Assembly: GCA_043779265.1 (NCBI GenBank)
Contig: JAYWEM010000010.1
Span: 1-14,754, forward strand
Direction: 5' to 3'
Origin: a bacterium
GTDB lineage: Bacteria > Eisenbacteria > RBG-16-71-46
DNA length: 14,754 nt
The position numbers and the translations under genes were made by a program. Shown here piece by piece: positions 1 through 13,523 of this stretch. Each line of letters opens with the position of its first letter. The stretch's first letter is position 1. The notes beneath the pieces are model-generated. The model searched no databases. It was not told where the DNA came from and worked only from the letters and a program-made list of their open reading frames with translations.

Positions 1-42
1 GGGGGGGGGGGGGGGGGGGCCCGCCGGGCCCACCCGCGCCCC

Positions 43-1995
43 TCAGTTCGTCAGCACGATCCGACGAGTCTCCCGTCGCCCGTCCACGTCGAGTCTCACG
101 ACATAGATCCCGTGTGAGAGGCGAGCGCCGGATCGCGTCTCTCCCCTCCACGTGAGCTGGTGTGCGCCACCCGAGTGGAAGCTGCGAACCGGCGCTGCTA
201 CGGACCGGCCCGCGAGATCGAAGATCTCCAACCGGACGTTCCCACCGGTCGCCGGCACGCGATACGCGAGCCTCACTTCCCCACGAGCGGGTACCGGACC
301 GATCGAGATGAAGCCTGCCTGCTCGGCCCCGGTGCGATCGCCCACGCCGAGTGGGCTCGCATACCAGGCCAGTTCGGTCGGTTGTCCGACATGCAGACCG
401 CGCATCTCACTGCCTGCGCCGGCGGCCGAACCAGTCGTCGTCGTGACCTGGCCGCCACCTGATGCGTGGGCGAGGTATGACTTCACCCACCAGTCGCCTG
501 CCTCGCTCGAACTGATCTCGGCGCTGAACGTGCCACCCTTCGGATCGCGAAGCATGATCAGGCGTGGCCAACCGCTCGCGCCGGCCGACAGTGCTTGACC
601 GGACGCGCCGAAATCGTTGATCGGGTTCCCACTGGCATCGTGTCCGATGCGGCGCCCATCCGCATCGGTCAAGAGCACGTTGACGAGCGAGTCGGAGCGG
701 ACCACGAGGACCTGCGCGCCACTATCGGACGAAGTCGTGGTGGTGAGGGCCACGGACGAAGGGCCATTCCACCGCCACGGCCGACCGGTATAGGGCTGGC
801 TCGCATCGAGAACCTCGAAGAGACCATTCCGGTCCGTACGAATCAGGCGGCCATTGCCCACGCCGAGCAGTCCATCGCCGTCAGGTGACGTTCGCGAGGC
901 GGATGTGGGCGTGAAGTCCGGAAGCCAGAATCCGAGTGGCCCGGTCCCGATCGTCGCCGACAACCACTGGCAGCTGAAGGGATTGAGGTAGGGATCTCGC
1001 GTGGCGATATCGAACACGAATGGTGTTCCGGTCCCGCTCGATGACGAAGTGACATAGATCGCTCCACCGAGGAGACCCAAACCGCTCATCGACAGTGACG
1101 CGAACGACGCTCCGCTGGGATTGAACGGAACGTTGTTGTCGATCGCTGCGCCGCAATTCACGGTCCCGTTGGGGTCCCGCGTGTTGTCGAGCACGCTGCC
1201 CGTGATGATCAGGACATTCTTGGGTGGAAGTGTCCCTGTGATGGCCAAAGCTCCCCAGTCCCCATCGAAGTGCAGCTGGACCGTGGTGGGGACGCTGGTG
1301 CGGCCGATGGTCCGGGAGCTCCCGTAGTAGATGTACTCGTCATCGCTGATCATGCAGGGCGCTCCAGTCCCCGGCAGCAGCGACGTCGAGATGCCGACCT
1401 TGCAGACTCCCTCGATCGGGTCATAGAGGAAGGTCGTGGGCGGCAGGCCCGATGCGGCGAACGTGAGACTCGAGAAAGCGTAGGTGTCGTGACGAATGAC
1501 CTCTGGCCACCCGCCATTCACGTCGTCATCGAGCTTCACGTCGAAAGTTCGCTCGAAGTGGAGCGACTGATTGTGAGAGCCGTACGGGAACTGCGTGATC
1601 ATGCCGGCGCCTTGCGGGAGCGTGTCGCCCGGCTGCACGATATAGGGGAAGTAGTAGAGCCTCTCGAGGGATGCGGTCGCCGGGTCGATGCGGAACAAGG
1701 CGAAGTCGTTGACGTTCCGGCCCGAAGTCGAGGCGAAGAACACAAGTCGGCCCTGCGAGTCGACGATCATGTCCTTGGGATGGCGATAGAGCCCGGATTG
1801 GAACAGGCGCGTCACGGCGCCATTGCGCAGTCGGTAGAAGCATCCGTTCACGTTTCCGAAGCCATCCACCACGACGTTCCCAGGTACGACGATGTCGCCA
1901 CTCTCGAGAGGCTGGGCGATCGCAGGAAGCGAGATCATGGACAGGGCCGCAAGGGCGGCGAGCAGACGGCGAACGAACTGAATGAGATGTGCCAT
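43..1995 (-). CDS. Secreted protein, 650 aa: signal peptide, beta-rich (propeller-like) body, C-terminal FlgD-Ig / T9SS-sorting-like domain
   Basis: N-terminus MAHLIQFVRRLLAALAALSMISLPAIA-Q has basic residues, a hydrophobic core and an AxA site. Blade-like segments include PKDMIVDSQGRLVF and LFRIDPAT. The C-terminal ~85 aa (PVPARGEVRLAYRVP...VRLEIFDLAGRSV...HQLTWRGETRSGARLSHGIYVVRLDVDG...RRIVL) matches the FlgD-Ig-type tail pattern. Catalytic function not recognisable. Confidence 0.85.
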   Translation of the reverse strand: MAHLIQFVRRLLAALAALSMISLPAIAQPLESGDIVVPGNVVVDGFGNVNGCFYRLRNGAVTRLFQSGLYRHPKDMIVDSQGRLVFFASTSGRNVNDFALFRIDPATASLERLYYFPYIVQPGDTLPQGAGMITQFPYGSHNQSLHFERTFDVKLDDDVNGGWPEVIRHDTYAFSSLTFAASGLPPTTFLYDPIEGVCKVGISTSLLPGTGAPCMISDDEYIYYGSSRTIGRTSVPTTVQLHFDGDWGALAITGTLPPKNVLIITGSVLDNTRDPNGTVNCGAAIDNNVPFNPSGASFASLSMSGLGLLGGAIYVTSSSSGTGTPFVFDIATRDPYLNPFSCQWLSATIGTGPLGFWLPDFTPTSASRTSPDGDGLLGVGNGRLIRTDRNGLFEVLDASQPYTGRPWRWNGPSSVALTTTTSSDSGAQVLVVRSDSLVNVLLTDADGRRIGHDASGNPINDFGASGQALSAGASGWPRLIMLRDPKGGTFSAEISSSEAGDWWVKSYLAHASGGGQVTTTTGSAAGAGSEMRGLHVGQPTELAWYASPLGVGDRTGAEQAGFISIGPVPARGEVRLAYRVPATGGNVRLEIFDLAGRSVAAPVRSFHSGGAHQLTWRGETRSGARLSHGIYVVRLDVDGRRETRRIVLTN

Positions 1996-2037
1996 GAGAG
2001 CCCCCGCGTGGAGAGGTGGACCGCGTCTACACCTATC

Positions 2038-2063
2038 CGTCGCACGAGCGGGCGCGGCGTTTA
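2038..2063 (-). promoter_or_regulatory. Putative ECF-sigma promoter, copy 1 (TAAACG-N9-CTCGTGCGACG), upstream of the secreted FlgD-Ig protein
   Basis: Minus strand reads TAAACG ccgcgcccg CTCGTGCGACG and ends 42 nt before the ATG at 1995. Identical blocks and spacing recur at 3025-3050. TAAAC-N16-CGAC resembles the AAC...CG(T/A) pattern of ECF promoters. Confidence 0.7.
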
Positions 2064-2100
2064 GCCGAGCGCATGCGGATCGCGCCCCACAGTGGCCGGG

Positions 2101-2991
2101 TCAGGGAGCCGCAGGGCTCGAGATCACCTCGAACTCCGCCGTCAGCACGGCGGGAGCCTCCGCTGCGGCGAGGAGCTCCACCCGATAGCGGCCGGGCGCT
2201 AGCGCTTGGACCGGCACCATCAAGCCGACCAACTGGTTCGCCTCGTCCCAGAACTCCTCTCGAGGACCGCTGGAGGACCAGGCGATCGCCCCGTCGGCCC
2301 GTAGCACTCGGACGGTGAGCGGCCCGAGTGGCGGGGTCACGTCCAATAGCAACGCCAGCATCGACTGCCCGGCGCGCAGTCGCACGATGGGCACTGAGGA
2401 CGCTGCTCGCGTGGCACCGCGCAGGACCAGCACGGCGGCACCGCCTCCTGGCAGGCTCAGCGCTGGCGGACTCACGGGATCGACACGGGCAAGCGACTCC
2501 TCGGCCGCACTCAGTCGGAGCCGCGCATCGGCCAACTCCCGCGGCGCGACGACGAGGCCGTTCCATGCCGGGAGCACGAGCGCGATCGCGACCACCGCGA
2601 TTACCGGCTGGAGTGCTCGGGGTATCGAGGGCAGCCCCGCGAGGGCTGCGCGCCAGGACCGCAACGCACTGGGAGCGAGCGCATCGCGCATGAGAATGAC
2701 TTCTTGCCGGCACGCATCGCACGAGCGCAGATGCCCGCCCACGAGGGCGAGTTCACGAGAGGCCAGGTCGGATGGTAGCGCGATGTATCGGGCCAGCTGG
2801 TCTGGAATCGGATGCTCCCCCGGAGCGCCTTGCGCACGCTTCGCCTCGGCCCACAGGGCGCGCGCGCCATCGGCCGCGAGGCGACACTCCGCGCAGCTGG
2901 CGACATGGAGCGCGACGCCTTCGGCGATCGCCGGCTCCAATGCCCCCCCCACCCAGTCGGAGACCAGGCCGGCTGCCTTGTCGTGGTCCAT
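2101..2991 (-). CDS. Membrane-anchored anti-sigma factor with two tandem zf-HC2 (ZAS) motifs, 296 aa
   Basis: Two HxxxCxxC motifs (LHVASCAEC, GHLRSCDAC), one hydrophobic segment (VIAVVAIALVLPAWNGLVVAP), a short helical linker and a C-terminal beta-rich domain. GGAGG SD precedes the ATG, and the gene lies next to an ECF sigma. Confidence 0.85.
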   Translation of the reverse strand: MDHDKAAGLVSDWVGGALEPAIAEGVALHVASCAECRLAADGARALWAEAKRAQGAPGEHPIPDQLARYIALPSDLASRELALVGGHLRSCDACRQEVILMRDALAPSALRSWRAALAGLPSIPRALQPVIAVVAIALVLPAWNGLVVAPRELADARLRLSAAEESLARVDPVSPPALSLPGGGAAVLVLRGATRAASSVPIVRLRAGQSMLALLLDVTPPLGPLTVRVLRADGAIAWSSSGPREEFWDEANQLVGLMVPVQALAPGRYRVELLAAAEAPAVLTAEFEVISSPAAP

Positions 2992-3024
2992 GCCCCTCCG
3001 CCCTGTGAAGCTCCCACTTTGTCA

Positions 3025-3050
3025 CGTCGCACGAGACGACTCCACGTTTA
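3025..3050 (-). promoter_or_regulatory. Putative ECF-sigma promoter, copy 2 (TAAACG-N9-CTCGTGCGACG), upstream of the anti-sigma gene
   Basis: Minus strand reads TAAACG tggagtcgt CTCGTGCGACG and ends 33 nt before the ATG at 2991. Same two blocks and spacing as 2038-2063. Confidence 0.7.
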
Positions 3051-3110
3051 TAGTGAACACACAGGCTCCCTCCCCTCGAGCCTCGCTCCGTCCCCGATCC
3101 GGAGGGCTGA

Positions 3111-3680
3111 CTGGACATCGCGTCCGAAGTCCCTCACAAGCACGGCGATCCTCTCCTCCGGCGATTCCTCGCCGGGGATACGGCGGCTTGTCGCGAGATC
3201 GAACGATGGTCCCGGGAGATCCTGTTCTTCCGAAGGTTCAATCTCGGACGCGAGGACATCGAGGACGTGGTGCAGGACGTGGTGAGCACCGTGTGGCAGT
3301 CCGCTGCTCGGCCGGGATTCGAGATCCGCCATGGTCTGCGTGCGTTCGTCCGCTGCATCACCCTCGCTCGCGCCATCGACCGCGTGCGTCGTCAGCGGGT
3401 CCGCCGCGCAGACACGCTCGACGGGGGGATCCGCGATCCGAGCCCGGGACCCGCGGCGCTCGCCGAGGCGTCGGCTGAGAGCGACCAGGTCCATCGGGCG
3501 CTCGATGACCTGGATGAGAAGTGCCGGGACGTGATCCGCCTGCACTACTTCGAGGGTTGGCCATACGCGCGGATCGCCGCCTCGATCGGACGGAGCGAGT
3601 CGACGGTGCGTGTCCGGATGTTCCACTGTATTCGATCACTGCGAGAACGGATGGGTATCGACGTGGGCTCTTCCAGGTGA
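3111..3680 (+). CDS. ECF-type RNA polymerase sigma-70 factor, about 189 aa, probable CTG start
   Basis: The frame of the track ORF 3267..3680 stays open back to an in-frame TGA at 3108-3110. The extension encodes typical ECF N-terminal sequence (DPLLRRFLAGDTAACREIERW...EDIEDVVQDV). Region 4 reads VHRALDDLDEKCRDVIRLHYFEGWPYARIAASIGRSESTVRVRMFHCIRSLR. GGAGG lies at 3101-3105, just before CTG 3111. Confidence 0.92.
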   Translation: MDIASEVPHKHGDPLLRRFLAGDTAACREIERWSREILFFRRFNLGREDIEDVVQDVVSTVWQSAARPGFEIRHGLRAFVRCITLARAIDRVRRQRVRRADTLDGGIRDPSPGPAALAEASAESDQVHRALDDLDEKCRDVIRLHYFEGWPYARIAASIGRSESTVRVRMFHCIRSLRERMGIDVGSSR

Positions 3681-6391
3681 GCCTGCTCGCGTTAGTGCTC
3701 ACCCTCGCGACGACCGCACCGCCAGCTGCTGTCGACTCGATGGCCGTCTACCTGGCGGATGGACGCATCGACCACGCGGAGCGATTCGCCCATGCCCGCC
3801 TCGCCGCCAGCGATCAGCCGACGGCGGCGGACTCGCTGATGTGGAGCCGGGGGCTCGCCCGCGTCACACAGCTGCGAGGTGACGACATCGCCGCGATCGG
3901 CTGGTGGACGCAGGTGCACGAGTCGACTGTCCGACTCCACGGACCCGAGAGCCCCGAAGCAGGCCTGGTGCTGCACGATCTGGGAGCGACGCAGCGGAAC
4001 GCAGGACGACTCACCGATGCGCTACGCACCTACCGCGCGACGCTCGAGCTGCGGGGGCGCGTGCTGGGCCCCGATCACATCGATGTCGCGTGGACCCTCA
4101 ACAACCTGGCGAACGTGTACTTCGATCTCGGGGACTTCGCAGAAGCCGCGTCGATGCATCGCAGGGCCCTGACGATCCGCGAGGCGCGCTGGGGAGCCGA
4201 TCACGCACAGGTCGCCTTGAGTCTGATGAACCTCGCGAACGCGCTGGAGCGACGGGGCGACGTCTCGACCGCGATCCGGCTCCACGAGCGGGCGCTCGCG
4301 ATCCATGAACGCGTGAACGGGCCATGGCATCGAAGCGTCGCCCAGAATCTCAACAATCTCGCACTCGCCCACATGAGCGCGGGCGATCTGGCCACCGCAC
4401 GCCCGATGTTCGAGCGTTCCATCAGTATCCGCGACTCACTGTTCGGCCCCGGCAGTGCCGAGGCGGCACGCAGCCGCCTTCGGCTTGGACTACTGCATCT
4501 GAGCGCCGACTCGCCGGTGGACGCGGCACGCGTCCTGTCGGAGGCCGTGGACGCGGATCGACGTCAGTTCGGGAAGGACCATCCGCTCCGGCAGGATGCG
4601 GCGATCGCACTCGCGGTGGCCGATCTGAGACTCGGCCGGGAGGGCGAAGCGCTGGACCTCGCGCTCGCTGCCGAGCGCGCCACGATCGGGCACCTGAGGC
4701 TGACGGCCCAAGGACTCGACGAGAGCCAGGCACTGCTCTTCTCGAGCAGTCGCTCCTCGGGTCTCCAGGTGCTGCTGAGTCTCGCCGCTTCCCGACCATC
4801 GGACTCGGCCATCGTCTTCACGGCATGGGATGCGCTCGTTCGGTCGCGCTCGGTGGTGCTCGACGAGATGGTCGCCCGGCGGAGATGGTCGAGTGCTGCT
4901 TCCGCCGACTCGGCGGCACGCCGCATGAGTGCTCGCGTGTCCGCTGCGCGCGATCATCTGGCACGGCTCGCGCTCCAGGGGCCGTGGCGAGACTCGACGC
5001 AGGAAGCGCGGCGACGCACGGCGACTGAAGAGAAGGGTCGCGCCGAAGAGGCATTGGCCGATGCCAATCGCATGTTCGGGGCGGAGATGCGCAGCGCCGA
5101 GGCCGGACTGCCGGAAGTCCGCGCCGCCCTTCCAGCGGGAGCGGCGCTGGTCTCCTTCGTCTGGTTCGAGCAGCTGCCCATCGGGGGCGCCGCCACGGAT
5201 ACCGTGAGCCAGGTGGCGGCGATGGTTCTCACCTCGAAAGAGGCGAGGCCCATCATGGTGCCCCTCGGGCCCGCGCCGGAGGTGGATCGAGCGATCCGCG
5301 CCTGGCTTTCGTCACAGCGCCGACAGCCCCATCCGCTTCGCCGAGCTCAGGATGAAGCGGCCTGCGCAGCCCGGGGCAGACGCGTTCGCGCACTCGTGTG
5401 GGAGCCAGTGGCCAGGCTCGTGGACTCGGCCGAACGCGTCTTCATCGTGAGCGACGGATTGCTGCAGATCACACCCTTGGGAGCACTCCCGGATCTGCGT
5501 GGACGCACGCTGATCGAGCATGGGCCGCTCCTCCATCCGATCGCGACCGAGCGGGACCTCTTGAGCACGATGCTTCCGGACCCGACCGGGAAGGGGCTCC
5601 TGGCGATCGGCGCGCCGGCATTCGATCGCTCACCGTCGAGCTCGCGCTCTGCGTCCGCTGCTTACGCGGACGCCTGCGCGATCTTCCGTGGCGGCCGATT
5701 CGAGGCCCTTCCCGAGTCCCTCTCGGAACTGACGGATGTCGCCCGAACCTGGGATGCCGCTCGGGGGGGCTCGGACGTGCTCCCGGATGAGAGGGCGCGA
5801 GTGGCATCGGGTGCGCAAGCGACGGAGCGTGCGATCCGCTCCCAGGCGGGTGGTCGGCGTGCCCTGCACATCGCCACCCATGGGTTCTTTCTGCCCACGA
5901 ACTGCTCGGTCTCGCTGAGCGGCGACACGCACACGTCATTGGCGCATCGGCATCCATTGCTCCGAAGCGCGATCGCGCTTGCTGGTGCCAATCAGCGATC
6001 GGATTCCCAGGATGCCGCGGACGATGGGATCCTCACCGCCGAGGAAGTCGCGGGTCTCGATCTCGCTTCGCTCGAGTGGGTGGTGCTGTCGGCATGTGAG
6101 ACCGGCCTCGGCGAACTGGATGGGAATGAGGGCGTGCTGGGGATGCGCCGAGCCTTCCGCGCCGCAGGCGCGAACGCGCTTGTGATGAGTCTGTGGCGAG
6201 TGGATGACGCAGCGTCGGCCGACTGGATGCGGGCGCTCTACGATGCTCGCTTCCGTCGAAAGCTCGACGCTGCGGCGGCAACGCGCGCGGCTGGCACGCG
6301 GATGATCCAGGAACGTCGCGCGAGAGGCCTGAGCACGCATCCGTATTACTGGGCGGCGTTCGTCAGTGAAGGTGGAGCCACAGGTCCCTGA
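3677..6391 (+). CDS. TPR-CHAT (caspase HetF-associated) cysteine protease, about 904 aa, possibly exported
   Basis: GTG at 3677 overlaps the sigma stop (GTGA) and is followed by hydrophobic SLLALVLTLATTA. About six 42-aa TPR units are marked by GPES/GPDH/GADH/GPWH/GPGS/GKDH. The CHAT dyad is intact: LHIATHGFF (His codon 5879) and VVLSACETG (Cys codon 6095). Also present are SLWRVDD and terminal HPYYWAAF. The ORF-track start 3521 would overlap the sigma gene by 160 nt. Confidence 0.93.
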   Translation: MSLLALVLTLATTAPPAAVDSMAVYLADGRIDHAERFAHARLAASDQPTAADSLMWSRGLARVTQLRGDDIAAIGWWTQVHESTVRLHGPESPEAGLVLHDLGATQRNAGRLTDALRTYRATLELRGRVLGPDHIDVAWTLNNLANVYFDLGDFAEAASMHRRALTIREARWGADHAQVALSLMNLANALERRGDVSTAIRLHERALAIHERVNGPWHRSVAQNLNNLALAHMSAGDLATARPMFERSISIRDSLFGPGSAEAARSRLRLGLLHLSADSPVDAARVLSEAVDADRRQFGKDHPLRQDAAIALAVADLRLGREGEALDLALAAERATIGHLRLTAQGLDESQALLFSSSRSSGLQVLLSLAASRPSDSAIVFTAWDALVRSRSVVLDEMVARRRWSSAASADSAARRMSARVSAARDHLARLALQGPWRDSTQEARRRTATEEKGRAEEALADANRMFGAEMRSAEAGLPEVRAALPAGAALVSFVWFEQLPIGGAATDTVSQVAAMVLTSKEARPIMVPLGPAPEVDRAIRAWLSSQRRQPHPLRRAQDEAACAARGRRVRALVWEPVARLVDSAERVFIVSDGLLQITPLGALPDLRGRTLIEHGPLLHPIATERDLLSTMLPDPTGKGLLAIGAPAFDRSPSSSRSASAAYADACAIFRGGRFEALPESLSELTDVARTWDAARGGSDVLPDERARVASGAQATERAIRSQAGGRRALHIATHGFFLPTNCSVSLSGDTHTSLAHRHPLLRSAIALAGANQRSDSQDAADDGILTAEEVAGLDLASLEWVVLSACETGLGELDGNEGVLGMRRAFRAAGANALVMSLWRVDDAASADWMRALYDARFRRKLDAAAATRAAGTRMIQERRARGLSTHPYYWAAFVSEGGATGP
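3890..4660 (+). repeat. Protein-level 42-aa tetratricopeptide repeat array (kinesin-light-chain type) within the CHAT gene
   Basis: Recurrent G-x-[DE]-H...LNNLA...G....A.....RAL pattern at about 126-nt period. Boundaries are approximate. Confidence 0.8.
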
Positions 6392-6437
6392 CTGCGGAAG
6401 GCCGCGAGCGATTGCCCGGACTCACTCGGCGCCGGCA

Positions 6438-6833
6438 TCAGCGGTGGTACCACCAGTAGACGAGGGCCGCTGCGCCACCCAACCAGAGAACGACGATCGC
6501 GGTGGCGGCGGCGTGGCTGGCCGGCCTGGCGAGCAATGCACTCGCCTTGGCGCGAGAGTCGAGGAGCACGTCGTGCGGCAACATGCGAATCACGACCATC
6601 AACGTCAGAGGCACGATGAGCAGATCATCGAGGTGGCCGAGTATGGGCACGAAGTCGGGGATCAGGTCGATCGGGCTGAGCGCGTACGCCGCAACGCCCC
6701 ACCCCAGGACTCTCGCGACGAGTGGCGTCCTCGTATCACGCGCCGCGAAGTAGATGGCGACGACGTCCCGCCTGATCTCATGCGCCCAGAGTCGGAGTCG
6801 TTCGAGGTGCGGTGCGACCGGGCCCTGAACCAC
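6438..6833 (-). CDS. YkvA / DUF1232 family membrane protein, about 131 aa
   Basis: Signature AYALSPIDLIPDFVPILGHLDDLLIVP and the preceding AIYFAARDTRTP. GTG 6833 is preferred because the track start 6968 overlaps the upstream gene; exact start uncertain. Confidence 0.9.
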   Translation of the reverse strand: MVQGPVAPHLERLRLWAHEIRRDVVAIYFAARDTRTPLVARVLGWGVAAYALSPIDLIPDFVPILGHLDDLLIVPLTLMVVIRMLPHDVLLDSRAKASALLARPASHAAATAIVVLWLGGAAALVYWWYHR

Positions 6834-9053: not shown

Positions 9054-10001
9054 CTAGGCTCGGACCTGGCTGTCGGGTCTCGGCCGAACGCTTCGCAGCA
9101 GCTTGCTCCCGGCGGCGAACAGCGCGACGCCGATGAAGAGCACCAGGAGCTGCTTGACCATCTGGTCACTGCTCGGGGCCTTGAAGACGGGCCCATCGAG
9201 CACGACCCACGCTGACACCGCGGAGATGACGATGCCGAGCACGCCTTGGAGTCGTTCCAGCGCGGCCGTCCAACGTCCCGTCACGATCACGCTCAGCCAG
9301 AGCGGCGCATGCAGGAGCAGGAGTCCCAGGAGCCAGGGCGCCTGACGCCGAAGGAAGGTGTCGGAGTAGGTGAGCGCCTCGTAGGCCGCCGGCGCCGCTC
9401 GACCGCCCCAGAAGAGGTCGAGCACCAAGCGCGGATCCATGAGCGCAGACACGCCGAACAAGAGGCCGACGAGCGCCATCACGATGGCGGTGCGACCACC
9501 CGAGACGCGCTCGCGCGAACGCGGATCCCACTCGCCCGTCGGCAGCGCTCGGCGCCGACTCCATGACGACAGGCCGTGGTACACGACCAACACACCCGGC
9601 CACCACAGGGACGCGATCACGACACGCACCCACCATTGCCCGATTATCGACAGCAGGCTCACGCCAGGGCTCGAAGGCTGCTGGAACATCTCCACCAGCC
9701 CGAGGACCCAGATGATCGCCATGCCGATGGCACTCGTACGCACGAACGCGTGTCCGTCCGCGGGATCGATGACCGTGAGCGAGGGTCGGTAGCGTGCGGC
9801 CACATCGGCAGGACGACCGAACTCACGAACAAGTCGCGTGGCCATGTCGGCATCGGCGAGTTGGCCCGAGTCCCCGGCCTTGTCATGCAGCTCCTCCTGC
9901 AAGAGGGCGCGCAACTCGAAGGCCACGTCGTTGCGCTGCTTGCGAGGCAGGCGTTCGGCGATCTCGGTGATATAGGCCTCGATGACGTCATTCGCGTTCA
10001 T
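9054..10001 (-). CDS. Multi-pass membrane protein with N-terminal helical HAAS-like domain, about 315 aa, PadR partner
   Basis: ATG 10001 overlaps the PadR stop (ATGA). N-terminus VIEAYITEIAERLPRKQRNDVAFELRALLQEEL...FGRPADVAARY is followed by about six hydrophobic segments. Confidence 0.82.
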   Translation of the reverse strand: MNANDVIEAYITEIAERLPRKQRNDVAFELRALLQEELHDKAGDSGQLADADMATRLVREFGRPADVAARYRPSLTVIDPADGHAFVRTSAIGMAIIWVLGLVEMFQQPSSPGVSLLSIIGQWWVRVVIASLWWPGVLVVYHGLSSWSRRRALPTGEWDPRSRERVSGGRTAIVMALVGLLFGVSALMDPRLVLDLFWGGRAAPAAYEALTYSDTFLRRQAPWLLGLLLLHAPLWLSVIVTGRWTAALERLQGVLGIVISAVSAWVVLDGPVFKAPSSDQMVKQLLVLFIGVALFAAGSKLLRSVRPRPDSQVRA

Positions 10002-10339
10002 GATCGGTCCTCCCCCAACAGCCGGTCCATGGCCTGATTCATGCCGTGCCACGACTCCGTGAGCTTTTTGAGCAACTTGCGACCGTCTGCATTGAGTGCG
10101 TAGTAGCGCCGCGGCGGACCGTCCTCGATCTTCCACTCGCTCTTGAGGAGCCCCTGCGTCTCCAGGCGACGAAGCAGCGGATAGAGCGTGCCCTCCTCGA
10201 TCGGCAGCCCTTGATCCGCGAGCACCTGCTTCAGCTCGTAGCCATAGCGCGGGCTCCGCAACTGCGAGAGCGTGGCCAGTACCACCACGCCTCGCCGCAG
10301 CTCGAGTTCCAGCTTGCCGATCGCGTCCGTCTCACCCAT
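9998..10339 (-). CDS. PadR-family transcriptional regulator, about 113 aa, probably leaderless
   Basis: ELRRGVVVLATL...YGYEL...IEEGTLYPLLRRLETQGLLKSEW...PPRRYYALN..GR winged-helix signature. Confidence 0.95.
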   Translation of the reverse strand: MGETDAIGKLELELRRGVVVLATLSQLRSPRYGYELKQVLADQGLPIEEGTLYPLLRRLETQGLLKSEWKIEDGPPRRYYALNADGRKLLKKLTESWHGMNQAMDRLLGEDRS

Positions 10340-10346
10340 GCGGGAC

Positions 10347-10375
10347 ACACTACTGTGCTGCACACAGTAACGCAA
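10347..10375 (-). promoter_or_regulatory. sigma70-type promoter TTGCGT-N17-TAGTGT with embedded palindromic operator TACTGTG-N5-CACAGTA (10351-10369)
   Basis: -35 at 10375-10370 and -10 at 10352-10347 with an exact 17-nt spacer. ATG lies 7 nt past the -10 with no SD. A perfect 7-bp inverted repeat fills the spacer. Confidence 0.8.
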
Positions 10376-10434
10376 TGGGAATCTTCGAACTCACGCTCCG
10401 CCACCCCGGGGCGCCTCGCACGCCCCCGATCTTT

Positions 10435-10487
10435 CACCTTGCTTACCGAGGGGAGCGAGGCGCATGCTCCCCTCGGTCACCGATATG
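10435..10487 (+). promoter_or_regulatory. Putative operator region of the second PadR: 12-bp perfect inverted repeat, also readable as two tandem 7-5-7 boxes
   Basis: ACCGAGGGGAGC (10445-10456) and GCTCCCCTCGGT (10466-10477) are exact reverse complements. The region also parses as CACCTTG-N5-CGAGGGG (10435-10453) and CCCCTCG-N5-CGATATG (10469-10487, overlapping the ATG). Possible promoter TTGCTT-N18-CATGCT. Confidence 0.65.
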
Positions 10488-10820
10488 AGCAAACCCACCG
10501 ACTTGGTCCAGGGCACACTCGATCTGCTCATCCTCAAGCTGCTGGCGATCCAGCCGCTGCACGGATGGGCGATCAGCCGCCGCCTGCGCGCGGTCTCGGG
10601 TGAAGTGCTTCAGGTCAGCGAAGGCTCGCTCTACCCCGCGCTGCACAAGCTCGAGCAAGAGGGCTGGATCCGCGCGGAATGGAAGCTCACCGAGAACAAC
10701 CGCCGCGCGAAGTTCTACGAACTGACGCGCGCCGGACGGCGACAGTTGCAGACCCAGGCCGCCTCGTGGGACCTGCTGTCCTCCGCGATCACCGCCGTCA
10801 TCCGGCTGTCCGAGAGCTGA
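10485..10820 (+). CDS. PadR-family transcriptional regulator (acidobacterial ADOP-associated type), about 111 aa
   Basis: DLVQGTLDLLILKLL...HGWAISRR...VSEGSLYPALHKLEQEGWIRAEW...NNRRAKFYELTRAGRRQL. Directly upstream of an ADOP permease. Alternative start at 10464. Confidence 0.95.
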   Translation: MSKPTDLVQGTLDLLILKLLAIQPLHGWAISRRLRAVSGEVLQVSEGSLYPALHKLEQEGWIRAEWKLTENNRRAKFYELTRAGRRQLQTQAASWDLLSSAITAVIRLSES

Positions 10821-10826
10821 TCGGCC

Positions 10827-13523
10827 ATGCGACTCGAGCGCTGGTGGACCACGTTGCGGCTGCGGCTCCGTACGTTGCTGCGCCGCGGCCAGATGCAGCA
10901 CGAGTTGGATGACGAGATGCAGTTCCATCTCGACCACCTGATCGACGACGGACTCGCGCGCGGCCTCTCTCCGACAGAAGCGCGCGCGGCGGCGTTGCGC
11001 ACGATGGGCGGGCTCACGCAACGCAAGGAGGAGGCACGCGACATGTGGGGACTGACGTGGCTCACCGACTTGGCCGACGACCTTCGATTCGCGCTGCGCA
11101 GCCTGTCGCGCGCCCGCGCGCTCACGGTCTTCGTGGTGTTGGCGCTGGCACTCGGCATCGGCATGACCGCAGCATCGTTCAGCATGCTCGACGCGCTGGT
11201 GTTCCGCCCCTACCCGGTGCCCGATCCCGGCAAGGTCGTCACGCTCGTGAGCACCTCGCGTGACCATGCGTTCGAACAGTTCTCGTATCGCGAGTTCCTC
11301 GACCTGCAGCAGTCCGCGCGCAGCTACGACGGCCTGGTGGCGAGCGGCACCGTGTTCGGCGTGGGCTACAGCCCCGACTCGCGCACGAGTCCGAGCGTCA
11401 AGGGGGGCATGCTCGTCTCGGGGGATTACTTCCGCGTGCTGGGCGTGGAGCCGCACCTCGGCCGCAGCTTCCGCGCCGAGGAGGACCGCGTCCCCGACCG
11501 AGACGCCGTCGTCGTACTGGCGCACGCGTTCTGGCAGCGGGAACTGGCCGGCGACCCGGACGTGGTGGGGCGGCATCTGCGCATCAACGGCCGCGACTTC
11601 ACCGTGATCGGCGTGGCGCCGCAGACGTTCCCCGGCATGTTCATCTTCTCGCGCAGTGATTTCTATCTGCCGCTCGCGATGGGCCGACTGTTCGAGGCCA
11701 CGGCCGAGCGCGACCTGCTCGAGGATCGCGACGCCCGCGTCCTCACCGTGCGAGGCCGACTGCGAGACGGTGTCACCCTGGCCGAGGCGCGCCACGAGGT
11801 GGCAGGCATCGCCAGCGCCTTCGAGCGCAGTCACCCCGTGCTCAATCGGGGCCGCGGCGCCTCGGTGCACACGCAACTGGCGATGCGCACCCAAGCCGAT
11901 GACGTGAACTGGAAGTTCGGCGCGATCTTCACCGTGCTCGGCCTGTGCACACTGCTCGTCGCCTGCACCAACGTGGCCGGGCTGCTGCTGTCGCGGGCCC
12001 GCGCACGCACACGCGAGATCGCCGTTCGCCTGGCGCTGGGCGCCGGTCGCGGCCGACTCGTGCGCTTCCTGCTCGCCGAGAGCCTCATCCTCGCCGGCGC
12101 CGGCGGCGCGGCGGGCGTGGTGCTGGGCTATGCCGCGATCCAGGCGCTGCGGCGCTTCTCGATCCCCGCCGACCTGCCCGTGACGGTCCCGTTCCAGATG
12201 GATGTGCGCGTGCTGCTCGCCTGCGTCGTGCTGGCGGTGACGAGCGCCGTGCTGTGCGGCCTCGCACCCGCACTGCAGAGCACGCGAGCCGATGTGACCG
12301 TCGGCCTGCGCTCGGCTGACGTCGATCCGCCCGGCCGGCGTGGCATGTGGGGCCGCAATGCTCTGGTGGTCTCGCAGGTGGCGCTCTCGCTCGCGCTGCT
12401 CACCGCGTCGTTCCTGATGGCGCGCAGTTTCCAGCAGAGCGTGGAGCAGTCATCCGGGCTGCGGACCGACCACCTGCTCATGGCGAGGCTCGATCCTCGA
12501 CTCCTGCAGTACGACACGGCGCGCACGCAGCGCTTCTACACGCAGCTCACCGAGCGCCTGCGCCAGGTGCCTGGTGTGGTGGGTACGGCGCTCACGCAGA
12601 ACCCGCCGCTCGGGCTCGACACGTTCGACCGCATCGAGTTCGTGCCCGAGGGCTACGACATGCCGCGCGACCGCGAGAGCCTGTCCGCGCCGAGCGACGC
12701 GATCGACGATGGCTACTTCGACACGTTCGGCGTCACGATCGCGCGCGGTCGCGCGTTCACCGCGCACGACGACTCCGCCTCGACGCGCGTCGCGATCGTC
12801 AGCGAGTTCATGGCAGAGCACTACTGGCCCGAGGGCGAGGCGGTGGGCCGCATCCTGCGGCTGGGCGGCCGTGACGGTACGCCGGTGGAGATCGTCGGCG
12901 TGTCGCAGACAATCAGCTACTCGAGCAGCCTCGAGAAGCCCGCCGACTTCATCTACCTGCCGCTCGCCCAGAAGCCCACGGCCCGCATGGTGATGATGGT
13001 GCGATCGACCGGCGACCCATTGCAGATGGTCGGCGCCGTGCGCGCCGCGGTGCACGCGATCGAGCCCGACCTGCCGATCCTGGAGATCCGCTCGTACGAG
13101 GAGCTGGTGCGCTACAGCAACACCGAGGGCCCGGCCGTGGCGATCCGCATGGTGGGCACCATGGGGTTGGTGGGCGTGCTGCTCGCGATCGCCGGCCTCT
13201 ACGGCCTCGTCGCGTACAACGTGGCGCGCCGCACACGCGAGATCGGCATCCGCATGGCGATCGGCGCGACCCACGCTGATGTGATGCGGCTGGTGCTGGG
13301 CAATGGGCTCACGCTGGTAGCGATCGGCACCGGGCTCGGACTGCTGCTCGGGTTCGCGCTCGAGCGTATGATCGACTCGATGCTGTTCGGCACCTCGGGC
13401 GTCGACTTGGTGTCCTACGCGATCGTCGTGCCGCTGATGCTGGCGGCCAGCGTGCTCGCCGCCTACCTGCCCGCCCGACGCGCCCTGCGGATCGAGCCCA
13501 CGGTGGCGTTGCGGTGCGAGTAG
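10827..13523 (+). CDS. ADOP-family duplicated ABC-type permease (prefix helical domain + 2x MacB-PCD/FtsX), 898 aa
   Basis: Prefix ELDDEMQFHLD...GLSPTEARAAALRTMGG, then DLRFALRSL...LALGIG. Two FtsX repeats (ACTNVAGLLLSRARARTREIAVRLALGAGR; GLYGLVAYNVARRTREIGIRMAIGA). Terminal PARRALRIEPTVALRCE. No ATPase gene adjacent. Confidence 0.95.
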   Translation: MRLERWWTTLRLRLRTLLRRGQMQHELDDEMQFHLDHLIDDGLARGLSPTEARAAALRTMGGLTQRKEEARDMWGLTWLTDLADDLRFALRSLSRARALTVFVVLALALGIGMTAASFSMLDALVFRPYPVPDPGKVVTLVSTSRDHAFEQFSYREFLDLQQSARSYDGLVASGTVFGVGYSPDSRTSPSVKGGMLVSGDYFRVLGVEPHLGRSFRAEEDRVPDRDAVVVLAHAFWQRELAGDPDVVGRHLRINGRDFTVIGVAPQTFPGMFIFSRSDFYLPLAMGRLFEATAERDLLEDRDARVLTVRGRLRDGVTLAEARHEVAGIASAFERSHPVLNRGRGASVHTQLAMRTQADDVNWKFGAIFTVLGLCTLLVACTNVAGLLLSRARARTREIAVRLALGAGRGRLVRFLLAESLILAGAGGAAGVVLGYAAIQALRRFSIPADLPVTVPFQMDVRVLLACVVLAVTSAVLCGLAPALQSTRADVTVGLRSADVDPPGRRGMWGRNALVVSQVALSLALLTASFLMARSFQQSVEQSSGLRTDHLLMARLDPRLLQYDTARTQRFYTQLTERLRQVPGVVGTALTQNPPLGLDTFDRIEFVPEGYDMPRDRESLSAPSDAIDDGYFDTFGVTIARGRAFTAHDDSASTRVAIVSEFMAEHYWPEGEAVGRILRLGGRDGTPVEIVGVSQTISYSSSLEKPADFIYLPLAQKPTARMVMMVRSTGDPLQMVGAVRAAVHAIEPDLPILEIRSYEELVRYSNTEGPAVAIRMVGTMGLVGVLLAIAGLYGLVAYNVARRTREIGIRMAIGATHADVMRLVLGNGLTLVAIGTGLGLLLGFALERMIDSMLFGTSGVDLVSYAIVVPLMLAASVLAAYLPARRALRIEPTVALRCE

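Follow-up and report, generated by a model that had tools for sequence, protein, structure and literature searches.

The described systems closest to the locus analysed here associate an ECF sigma factor with a TPR-CHAT protein. In DdvS/DdvA of Myxococcus xanthus, an extracytoplasmic TPR-CHAT moiety is fused to a zinc-binding, single-pass anti-sigma, site-1 cleavage by CHAT has been proposed, and the promoters (GTAA-n16-CGT, with AAC and CG cores) are confined to the locus; they include PddvSA, itself a sigma target, and the other targets are CBASS/CRISPR (PMC6061681; PMC11506125). In Csx29/Csx30/CASP-sigma of type III-E CRISPR, the TPR-CHAT protein cuts an anti-sigma and frees an ECF sigma with sites in the locus, the system being cytoplasmic, RNA-triggered, and CRISPR-linked (PMC10028731). 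ECF54 sigmas also adjoin a TPR-CHAT gene; the group is actinobacterial, with a carboxypeptidase-regulatory-like +1 protein, a subtilase, no recognised anti-sigma, and GTATCAG/CTCC promoter elements (PMC7826278, Casas-Pastor et al. 2021). More generally, an AAC/CG core is common to many ECF promoters (PMC6061681), a spacing of 16-18 has been used for AAC-to-CG and about half of ECFs autoregulate (PMC7776599), ECF32 being a known non-autoregulated group (PMC7826278).

The window, by which we mean the whole 14,754-nt stretch of DNA that was analysed, contains a cassette of this general kind (Table 1). Like DdvS/DdvA, it combines an ECF sigma, a zinc-binding single-pass anti-sigma, and an extracytoplasmic TPR-CHAT protein (here predicted) with locus-confined promoters having AAC and CG cores, and for it too a site-1 cut by CHAT is proposed. 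It departs from DdvS/DdvA in that TPR-CHAT is encoded separately and predicted to be exported, the anti-sigma carries a pair of zinc domains together with a beta-sandwich, the sigma and anti-sigma genes are divergent, the promoter reads TAAACG-N13-TGCGAC, and the sigma gene is not among the targets, which encode secreted proteins. Whereas the Csx29 system is cytoplasmic, the window cassette is predicted to be exported and membrane-spanning, and no cas genes were found in the window. With ECF54 it shares the adjoining TPR-CHAT gene but none of the other features of that group, which are a much better fit to a paralogous cassette on contig C16 of the same genome. Its promoter resembles generic ECF target promoters in being bipartite and near-consensus, with 16 bp from AAC to CG and conservation upstream (PMC7776599, PMC7826278), but differs in not being autoregulatory. 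Judged from its sequence, the cassette works like DdvS/DdvA and Csx29/Csx30/CASP-sigma but belongs to neither, and it is not ECF54. In the portion of the PMC7826278 supplement that was covered, the TAAAC/GCGAC pair was not found and CHAT is mentioned only for ECF54; the motif may match a numbered ECF group, and it is set apart from ECF54 by the published description. Literature searches found no paper on the window's sigma/anti-sigma/TPR-CHAT family. The element is of an ordinary kind; the protease-gated ECF cassette around it is an undescribed variant.

Table 1. Cassette features and their positions in the window.
Feature	Position	Strand	Remarks
Secreted cargo, 650 aa	43..1995	-	Signal peptide at the start, FlgD_ig / T9SS-type sorting domain at the C-terminus; probably a beta-propeller
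Copy C, predicted ECF promoter of secreted cargo gene	2038..2063	-	Exact match; 25.7 bits, foreign-site matrix
Copy C, -35	2063-2058	-	
Copy C, -10 region	2044-2039	-	
Copy C, predicted start	near 2028-2030	-	Putative
Anti-sigma-like protein, 296 aa	2101..2991	-	zf-HC2; two HxxxCxxC zinc domains
Arg195 codon of anti-sigma	2407..2409	-	Candidate protease cut site; putative role
Copy A, predicted ECF promoter of anti-sigma gene	3025..3050	-	Exact match; 25.7 bits, matrix without this genome
Copy A, -35 (TAAACG)	3050-3045	-	
Copy A, -10 region (TGCGAC)	3031-3026	-	
Copy A, predicted start	near 3015-3017	-	Putative
TATAGT, housekeeping-type -10 toward sigma gene	3049..3054	+	2 bp shared with copy A -35; putative function
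ECF sigma, 189 aa	3111..3680	+	Probable CTG start; GGAGG at 3101-3105 ahead; N-terminal alignment agrees with the starts of orthologues
TPR-CHAT caspase-like protein, 904 aa	3677..6391	+	Start overlaps sigma stop; hydrophobic N-terminus

Domain matches bore out the gene assignments of an earlier sequence-only reading, which had placed an ECF sigma, an anti-sigma, and a secreted protein next to the motif. The sigma contains Sigma70_r2 and Sigma70_r4_2 (TIGR02937, 81.6 bits against a cut-off of 42.9) and, with only sigma2 and sigma4 domains in ~190 amino acids, is of the ECF (group 4) type. Its closest named relative, at 64%, is from Candidatus Eiseniibacteriota; a metagenome scan for the sigma gave no close relative (best 31%). 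Elsewhere in the window, a run of ~19 G bases opens the contig (1-20) and is probably a sequencing artefact. Unrelated to the motif is a pair of divergent PadR genes at 9054-13523; behind each comes a gene for a membrane protein (HAAS-type, and a MacB/FtsX ADOP-like permease).

The motif TAAACG-N9-CTCGTGCGACG occurs twice, with 0 mismatches in either copy; one lies 42 nt upstream of the cargo ATG (1995), the other 33 nt upstream of the anti-sigma ATG (2991). The identical blocks, equal spacing, divergent spacer, shared strand, and intergenic location claimed from the letters were all found as described, and no further copy was present in the window even at 3 mismatches, at which the chance mean is 0.09 and two copies appeared in 0/200 shuffles. 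The two copies are also the only exact ones in the entire 3,433,006-base genome (92% complete). It might be argued that such a pair is a product of chance, as many gapped pairs of 6+6 words turn up more than once in 18 kb by chance, or that it is a functionless duplicated fragment. However, 17/17 bases matched at fixed spacing, and beyond the blocks the copies are no more alike than background sequence (identity of 13/40 upstream, 3/9 in the spacer, and 12/40 downstream); the pair is therefore not a duplicated segment. A gapped-word scan of the intergenic DNA of the ECF-CHAT loci returned the window pair as its sole match at 12/12, the equivalent blind scan across all DNA of these loci being too noisy. 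A search for RNA families gave no match close to threshold. Conservation of the motif across genera and two families, and its presence in a held-out locus, already refute an origin by chance or functionless duplication, to which we assign a vanishingly small probability.

That conservation was established from 25 loci in addition to the window. An orthologous sigma is encoded by 13/206 genomes of the phylum, by two more records, and by one more genome. Using a leave-one-genome-out matrix, the 330 nt preceding the anti-sigma gene were scored against 600 background windows, and in 16/16 orthologous divergent cassettes (sigma identity >=36%) the site before the anti-sigma gene beat all 600; the core, TAAACR-N13/14-YGCGAC, lies in the sense orientation upstream of that gene. 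The check suggested by the sequence-only reading, namely whether the motif lies upstream of orthologues, therefore came out in its favour. The motif was found before the anti-sigma gene in 0/5 distant cassettes (sigma identity 27-33%); five further loci (L143, L145, L146, L150, and L151), in which the DNA examined contains no sigma, belong to neither group. Behind the anti-sigma gene, a second site is present in 10/15 loci and missing from 5/15. The initial choice of training sites was seeded by the window consensus, and related sequences are not independent, so the held-out locus L184, which is outside the training set, matters: TAAACG-N13-AGCGAC lies ahead of its anti-sigma ATG. Over 27 sites, in a tally in which one row (L141 site C, absent from the matrices) is off by one base, AAC and GCGAC are nearly invariant, and the spacer is 13 in 24 sites and 14 in three, the AAC-to-CGAC distance being 16 bp. 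The suggestion that CTCGTG before the -10 is a conserved extended -10 contact fared less well: the full hexamer is intact in only 4/27 sites and was rejected as a conserved element, but a T-nn-YG before CGAC is retained, with T three bases ahead of YGCGAC in 19/27. At L138, the anti-sigma ATG is 10 nt behind CGAC, which fits a leaderless start, and at L032:9212-9214 the anti-sigma stop codon is the initial TAA of the cargo promoter -35.

A matrix built from 24 foreign sites gave both window copies 25.7 bits, the next genomic site scoring 17.0, and a reversed-genome control yielded two matches at >=18 bits and none at >=20. A genome scan for more targets, as had been proposed, thus found nothing above background by exact or matrix search beyond the window pair, and further targets in this genome were rejected. 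Among the 13 sigma-bearing genomes there are 16 exact-pattern matches, 15 of which are at the cassette (8/13 genomes); the only off-cassette match, L154:7365 (G007:C131), lies 63 nt before the gene for a 597-aa secreted TPR protein and is a candidate distant target. The 193 genomes without the sigma have 37 exact-pattern matches in 31 genomes, near the reversed-pattern control. Since there is no other genomic site and matches elsewhere occur at the control rate, the regulon appears to be confined to the cassette.

Co-occurrence and conservation among orthologues support the earlier proposal that the motif is the recognition sequence of the adjacent sigma, and we consider this assignment very likely. 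A different sigma or transcription factor encoded elsewhere, acting as a phylum-wide regulator, might instead read the motif: the genome encodes at least 16 ECF-like genes, the AAC/CG core is widespread in ECF promoters (PMC6061681), and the pattern is matched in 31/193 genomes that lack this sigma. This alternative is improbable, as those matches occur at the reversed-pattern rate, with 4/5 of those inspected lying inside long reading frames, and there is no other site in this genome. Moreover, the motif is gone where the sigma diverges (the 0/5 group), and the paralogous cassette has a different motif. Sigma residues Asp90 and Phe171 are kept together with the motif, Phe171 being replaced in 4/5 motif-less loci. 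But the sigma-alignment column taken as equivalent to RpoE Lys56, anchored on an alignment to SigK, is acidic in only 4/16 sigmas and Thr in the window sigma, a point against the assignment: according to Todor et al., an A at -11 goes with acidity at the Lys56 position (PMC7776599).

The sigma gene itself is never a target, a point that the sequence-only reading missed, together with the opposite-strand hexamer and the TPR-CHAT gene. The motif never points toward the sigma gene, and positive autoregulation was rejected because 0/16 cassettes gave p<0.01 on the reverse strand. Because there is no autoregulation, forward-strand searches upstream of sigma genes would miss this promoter. The start codon at 3111-3113 is probably CTG, and orthologues use GTG, TTG, or ATG; the non-ATG starts suggest that translation of the sigma may be kept deliberately low. 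Overlapping the -35 of copy A on the other strand is the hexamer TATAGT, which occurs 18 times in the genome. A match to TAnnnT (at least 5/6) on the sigma strand was present in 11/16 spacers, against 0/16 on the opposite strand and 0.9 expected; 5/16 spacers have no good match. The exact 2-bp overlap with the ECF -35 was seen in eight of the 16 loci, seven of them in one clade of eight rows and L136 being the only one outside it.

Whether this hexamer belongs to a weak housekeeping promoter for the sigma gene that would be occluded by bound ECF holoenzyme is, in our judgment, an even call. It could simply be an A/T-rich upstream extension that boosts the anti-sigma promoter, without any occlusion loop; this has less than an even chance, though a substantial one. 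It accords with the lack of a TTG-type -35 at 17-18 bp from the opposite-strand -10 in 16/16 loci (the ECF -10, read backwards, sits at 17 bp), with the near-restriction of the exact overlap to one clade, and with a consensus scan of 1-6600 that found no canonical sigma-70 promoters. A mere A/T extension does not, however, sit well with the strand polarity of the hexamer, nor with its occurrence at 9/16 anti-sigma sites versus 0/11 cargo sites, also at 5/6. The hexamer moves independently of the ECF site (+5 in L033, -31 in L135, and +125 in L137), and the held-out L184 has it twice. Against a housekeeping promoter, on the other hand, stands the pattern of this genome's tRNA promoters: among 36 tRNAs examined, TTG-N17/18-TAnnnT was found in 13 of the 15 promoters having a TAnnnT.

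The anti-sigma-like protein has the N-terminal HxxxCxxC, single transmembrane helix, and outer domain of ZAS-type transmembrane anti-sigmas, and gene context suggests that it binds and inhibits the sigma. A transmembrane/coiled helix occupies residues 125-169, and an extracytoplasmic beta-sandwich occupies residues 187-291. Its AlphaFold model (108 sequences, pLDDT 91.5, pTM 0.46) consists of two helical zinc domains, the 125-169 helix with a hydrophobic segment, and an all-beta outer domain; a fold search with the model gave generic beta-sandwich matches only. Apart from the zinc ligands, Arg195 is the best-conserved residue in 139 homologues (98%, with Gly next to it in 62%), and in the model this residue sits in an outer-domain loop, just past the first beta-strand. 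TPR-CHAT and anti-sigma are encoded by separate genes on opposite strands. The CHAT domain (PF12770, 189 bits) has a His735/Cys807 dyad, the His being invariant and the Cys present in at least 90% of 12 aligned proteins (L137 left out), and a solved-structure search with the CHAT alignment yielded only TPR matches at E<=1e-10. In most loci, the CHAT gene is translationally coupled to the sigma gene or directly behind it. The TPR-CHAT N-termini were judged by eye to be signal-peptide-like, which would put the protein and the conserved Arg-Gly loop on one side of the membrane.

We lean slightly toward the view that the exported TPR-CHAT protein cuts the anti-sigma outer domain after Arg195 as the site-1 protease. 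An Arg preference, as in separase, is assumed for the window's CHAT family. The promoter reading could be right and TPR-CHAT nevertheless not be the site-1 protease, acting rather in sensing, as a scaffold, or in processing the cargo, while a different protease, self-cleavage, or zinc or redox loss at the zinc domains would account for release of the anti-sigma. In that case the two zinc domains would suggest a cytoplasmic input, Arg195 may be structural rather than a cut site, and no cleavage is reported even for DdvA (PMC11506125). Such a role remains a serious minority possibility, against which stand the coupling or direct proximity of the CHAT gene to that for the sigma, the intact dyad, the signal-peptide-like start on the side of the Arg-Gly loop, and the precedent of Csx29/Csx30/CASP-sigma (PMC10028731).

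The second site precedes a gene for a secreted protein, and the proteins at this position in different genomes are mutually unrelated, having FG-GAP, LamG, BNR, or CHRD domains or none; FlgD_ig was found in 7/12 cargoes scanned. The structural neighbours of the window cargo are propeller-like (TM < 0.5), and the protein has 16 metagenomic homologues; no homologue was found in the other 205 genomes searched. Because the cargo gene differs between genomes, its promoter would be a socket for interchangeable secreted proteins. Extra sites of 18.8-21.6 bits (L138:5893, L140:16768, L145:6245, and L143:701) precede secreted proteins elsewhere in or near rearranged cassettes, in which the predicted promoter moves together with the cargo slot. 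No terminator was found in 1-6600, and so none between the anti-sigma and cargo genes; transcription from promoter A may therefore extend into the cargo gene. In one clade, no clear gene is present in the 300-400 nt behind the second promoter (L034:8250-8623, L135:9471-9844, and L136:8090-8459). The three loci share CTCCATCG ~20 nt behind the -10, and in L034 a long hairpin and a T run occur at ~130 nt; the region is a candidate for a small RNA that depends on the sigma and has an anti-Shine-Dalgarno seed.

The genome has 11 CHAT loci (contigs C12, C16, C84, C85, C96, C104, C113, C128, C134, and C147), several of which adjoin ECF sigmas, and a kinase-like gene, as judged by eye, lies between sigma and CHAT on at least C84, C96, and C113. 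The cassette on C16 (G000:C16:43671-44373, L152), like L161-L178, comprises ECF / zinc protein / TPR-CHAT / subtilase, and a sigma of its type is found in 44/206 genomes. It served as a control: the same approach recovered GTATC(A)-N16-CACCT before the anti-sigma gene in 18/19 loci, positioned inside the sigma 3' end and directed toward the next gene in 18/19 loci, and also upstream of the sigma gene, pointing away from it, in 13/19. Its -35 matches the published GTATCAG of ECF54, and its CACC compares with a published -10 of CTCC (PMC7826278). The C16 cassette is ECF54-like outside Actinobacteria, and there too the motif does not drive the sigma. As it carries a motif different from that of the window, each cassette has its own. 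The 9-mer CTCGTGCGA before the C16 subtilase gene was rejected as a common element; it occurs 125 times in the genome and is not kept in 18 orthologous loci.

As an overall explanation, the conserved, fixed-spacing sites likely represent a -35/-10 promoter, TAAACR-N13-YGCGAC, that the neighbouring ECF sigma recognises. The sigma would drive only the membrane anti-sigma gene and a secreted cargo gene, the second promoter serving as a socket for exchangeable secreted proteins. The sigma and TPR-CHAT genes would be co-transcribed from the weak housekeeping promoter whose TATAGT -10 overlaps the ECF -35. On sensing a signal, exported TPR-CHAT would cut the outer domain at Arg195, intramembrane proteolysis would follow, and the sigma would be released. 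Active sigma would then produce more inhibitor and occlude its own promoter, giving a self-limiting pulse rather than the usual positive autoregulation. That all of these steps operate together, as an undescribed ECF family forming a plug-and-play secretion switch that is opened by a CHAT cut, delivers slotted cargo, re-makes its inhibitor, and silences itself, is a tentative and rather doubtful proposition.

The cassette nonetheless brings together, from a phylum without cultured members, everything needed for a compact test system, comprising a sigma, a promoter consensus, an anti-sigma, a separate dyad-bearing protease, and a predicted cut site. Because enzyme and substrate are separate proteins here, site-1 action of CHAT on a membrane anti-sigma is testable in vitro, and because the sigma has no other genomic site and does not drive its own gene, the promoter suits use as an orthogonal switch. 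If true, negative autoregulation of an ECF sigma through overlap of its promoter with a divergent housekeeping -10 would be a route that a targeted literature search did not find described.
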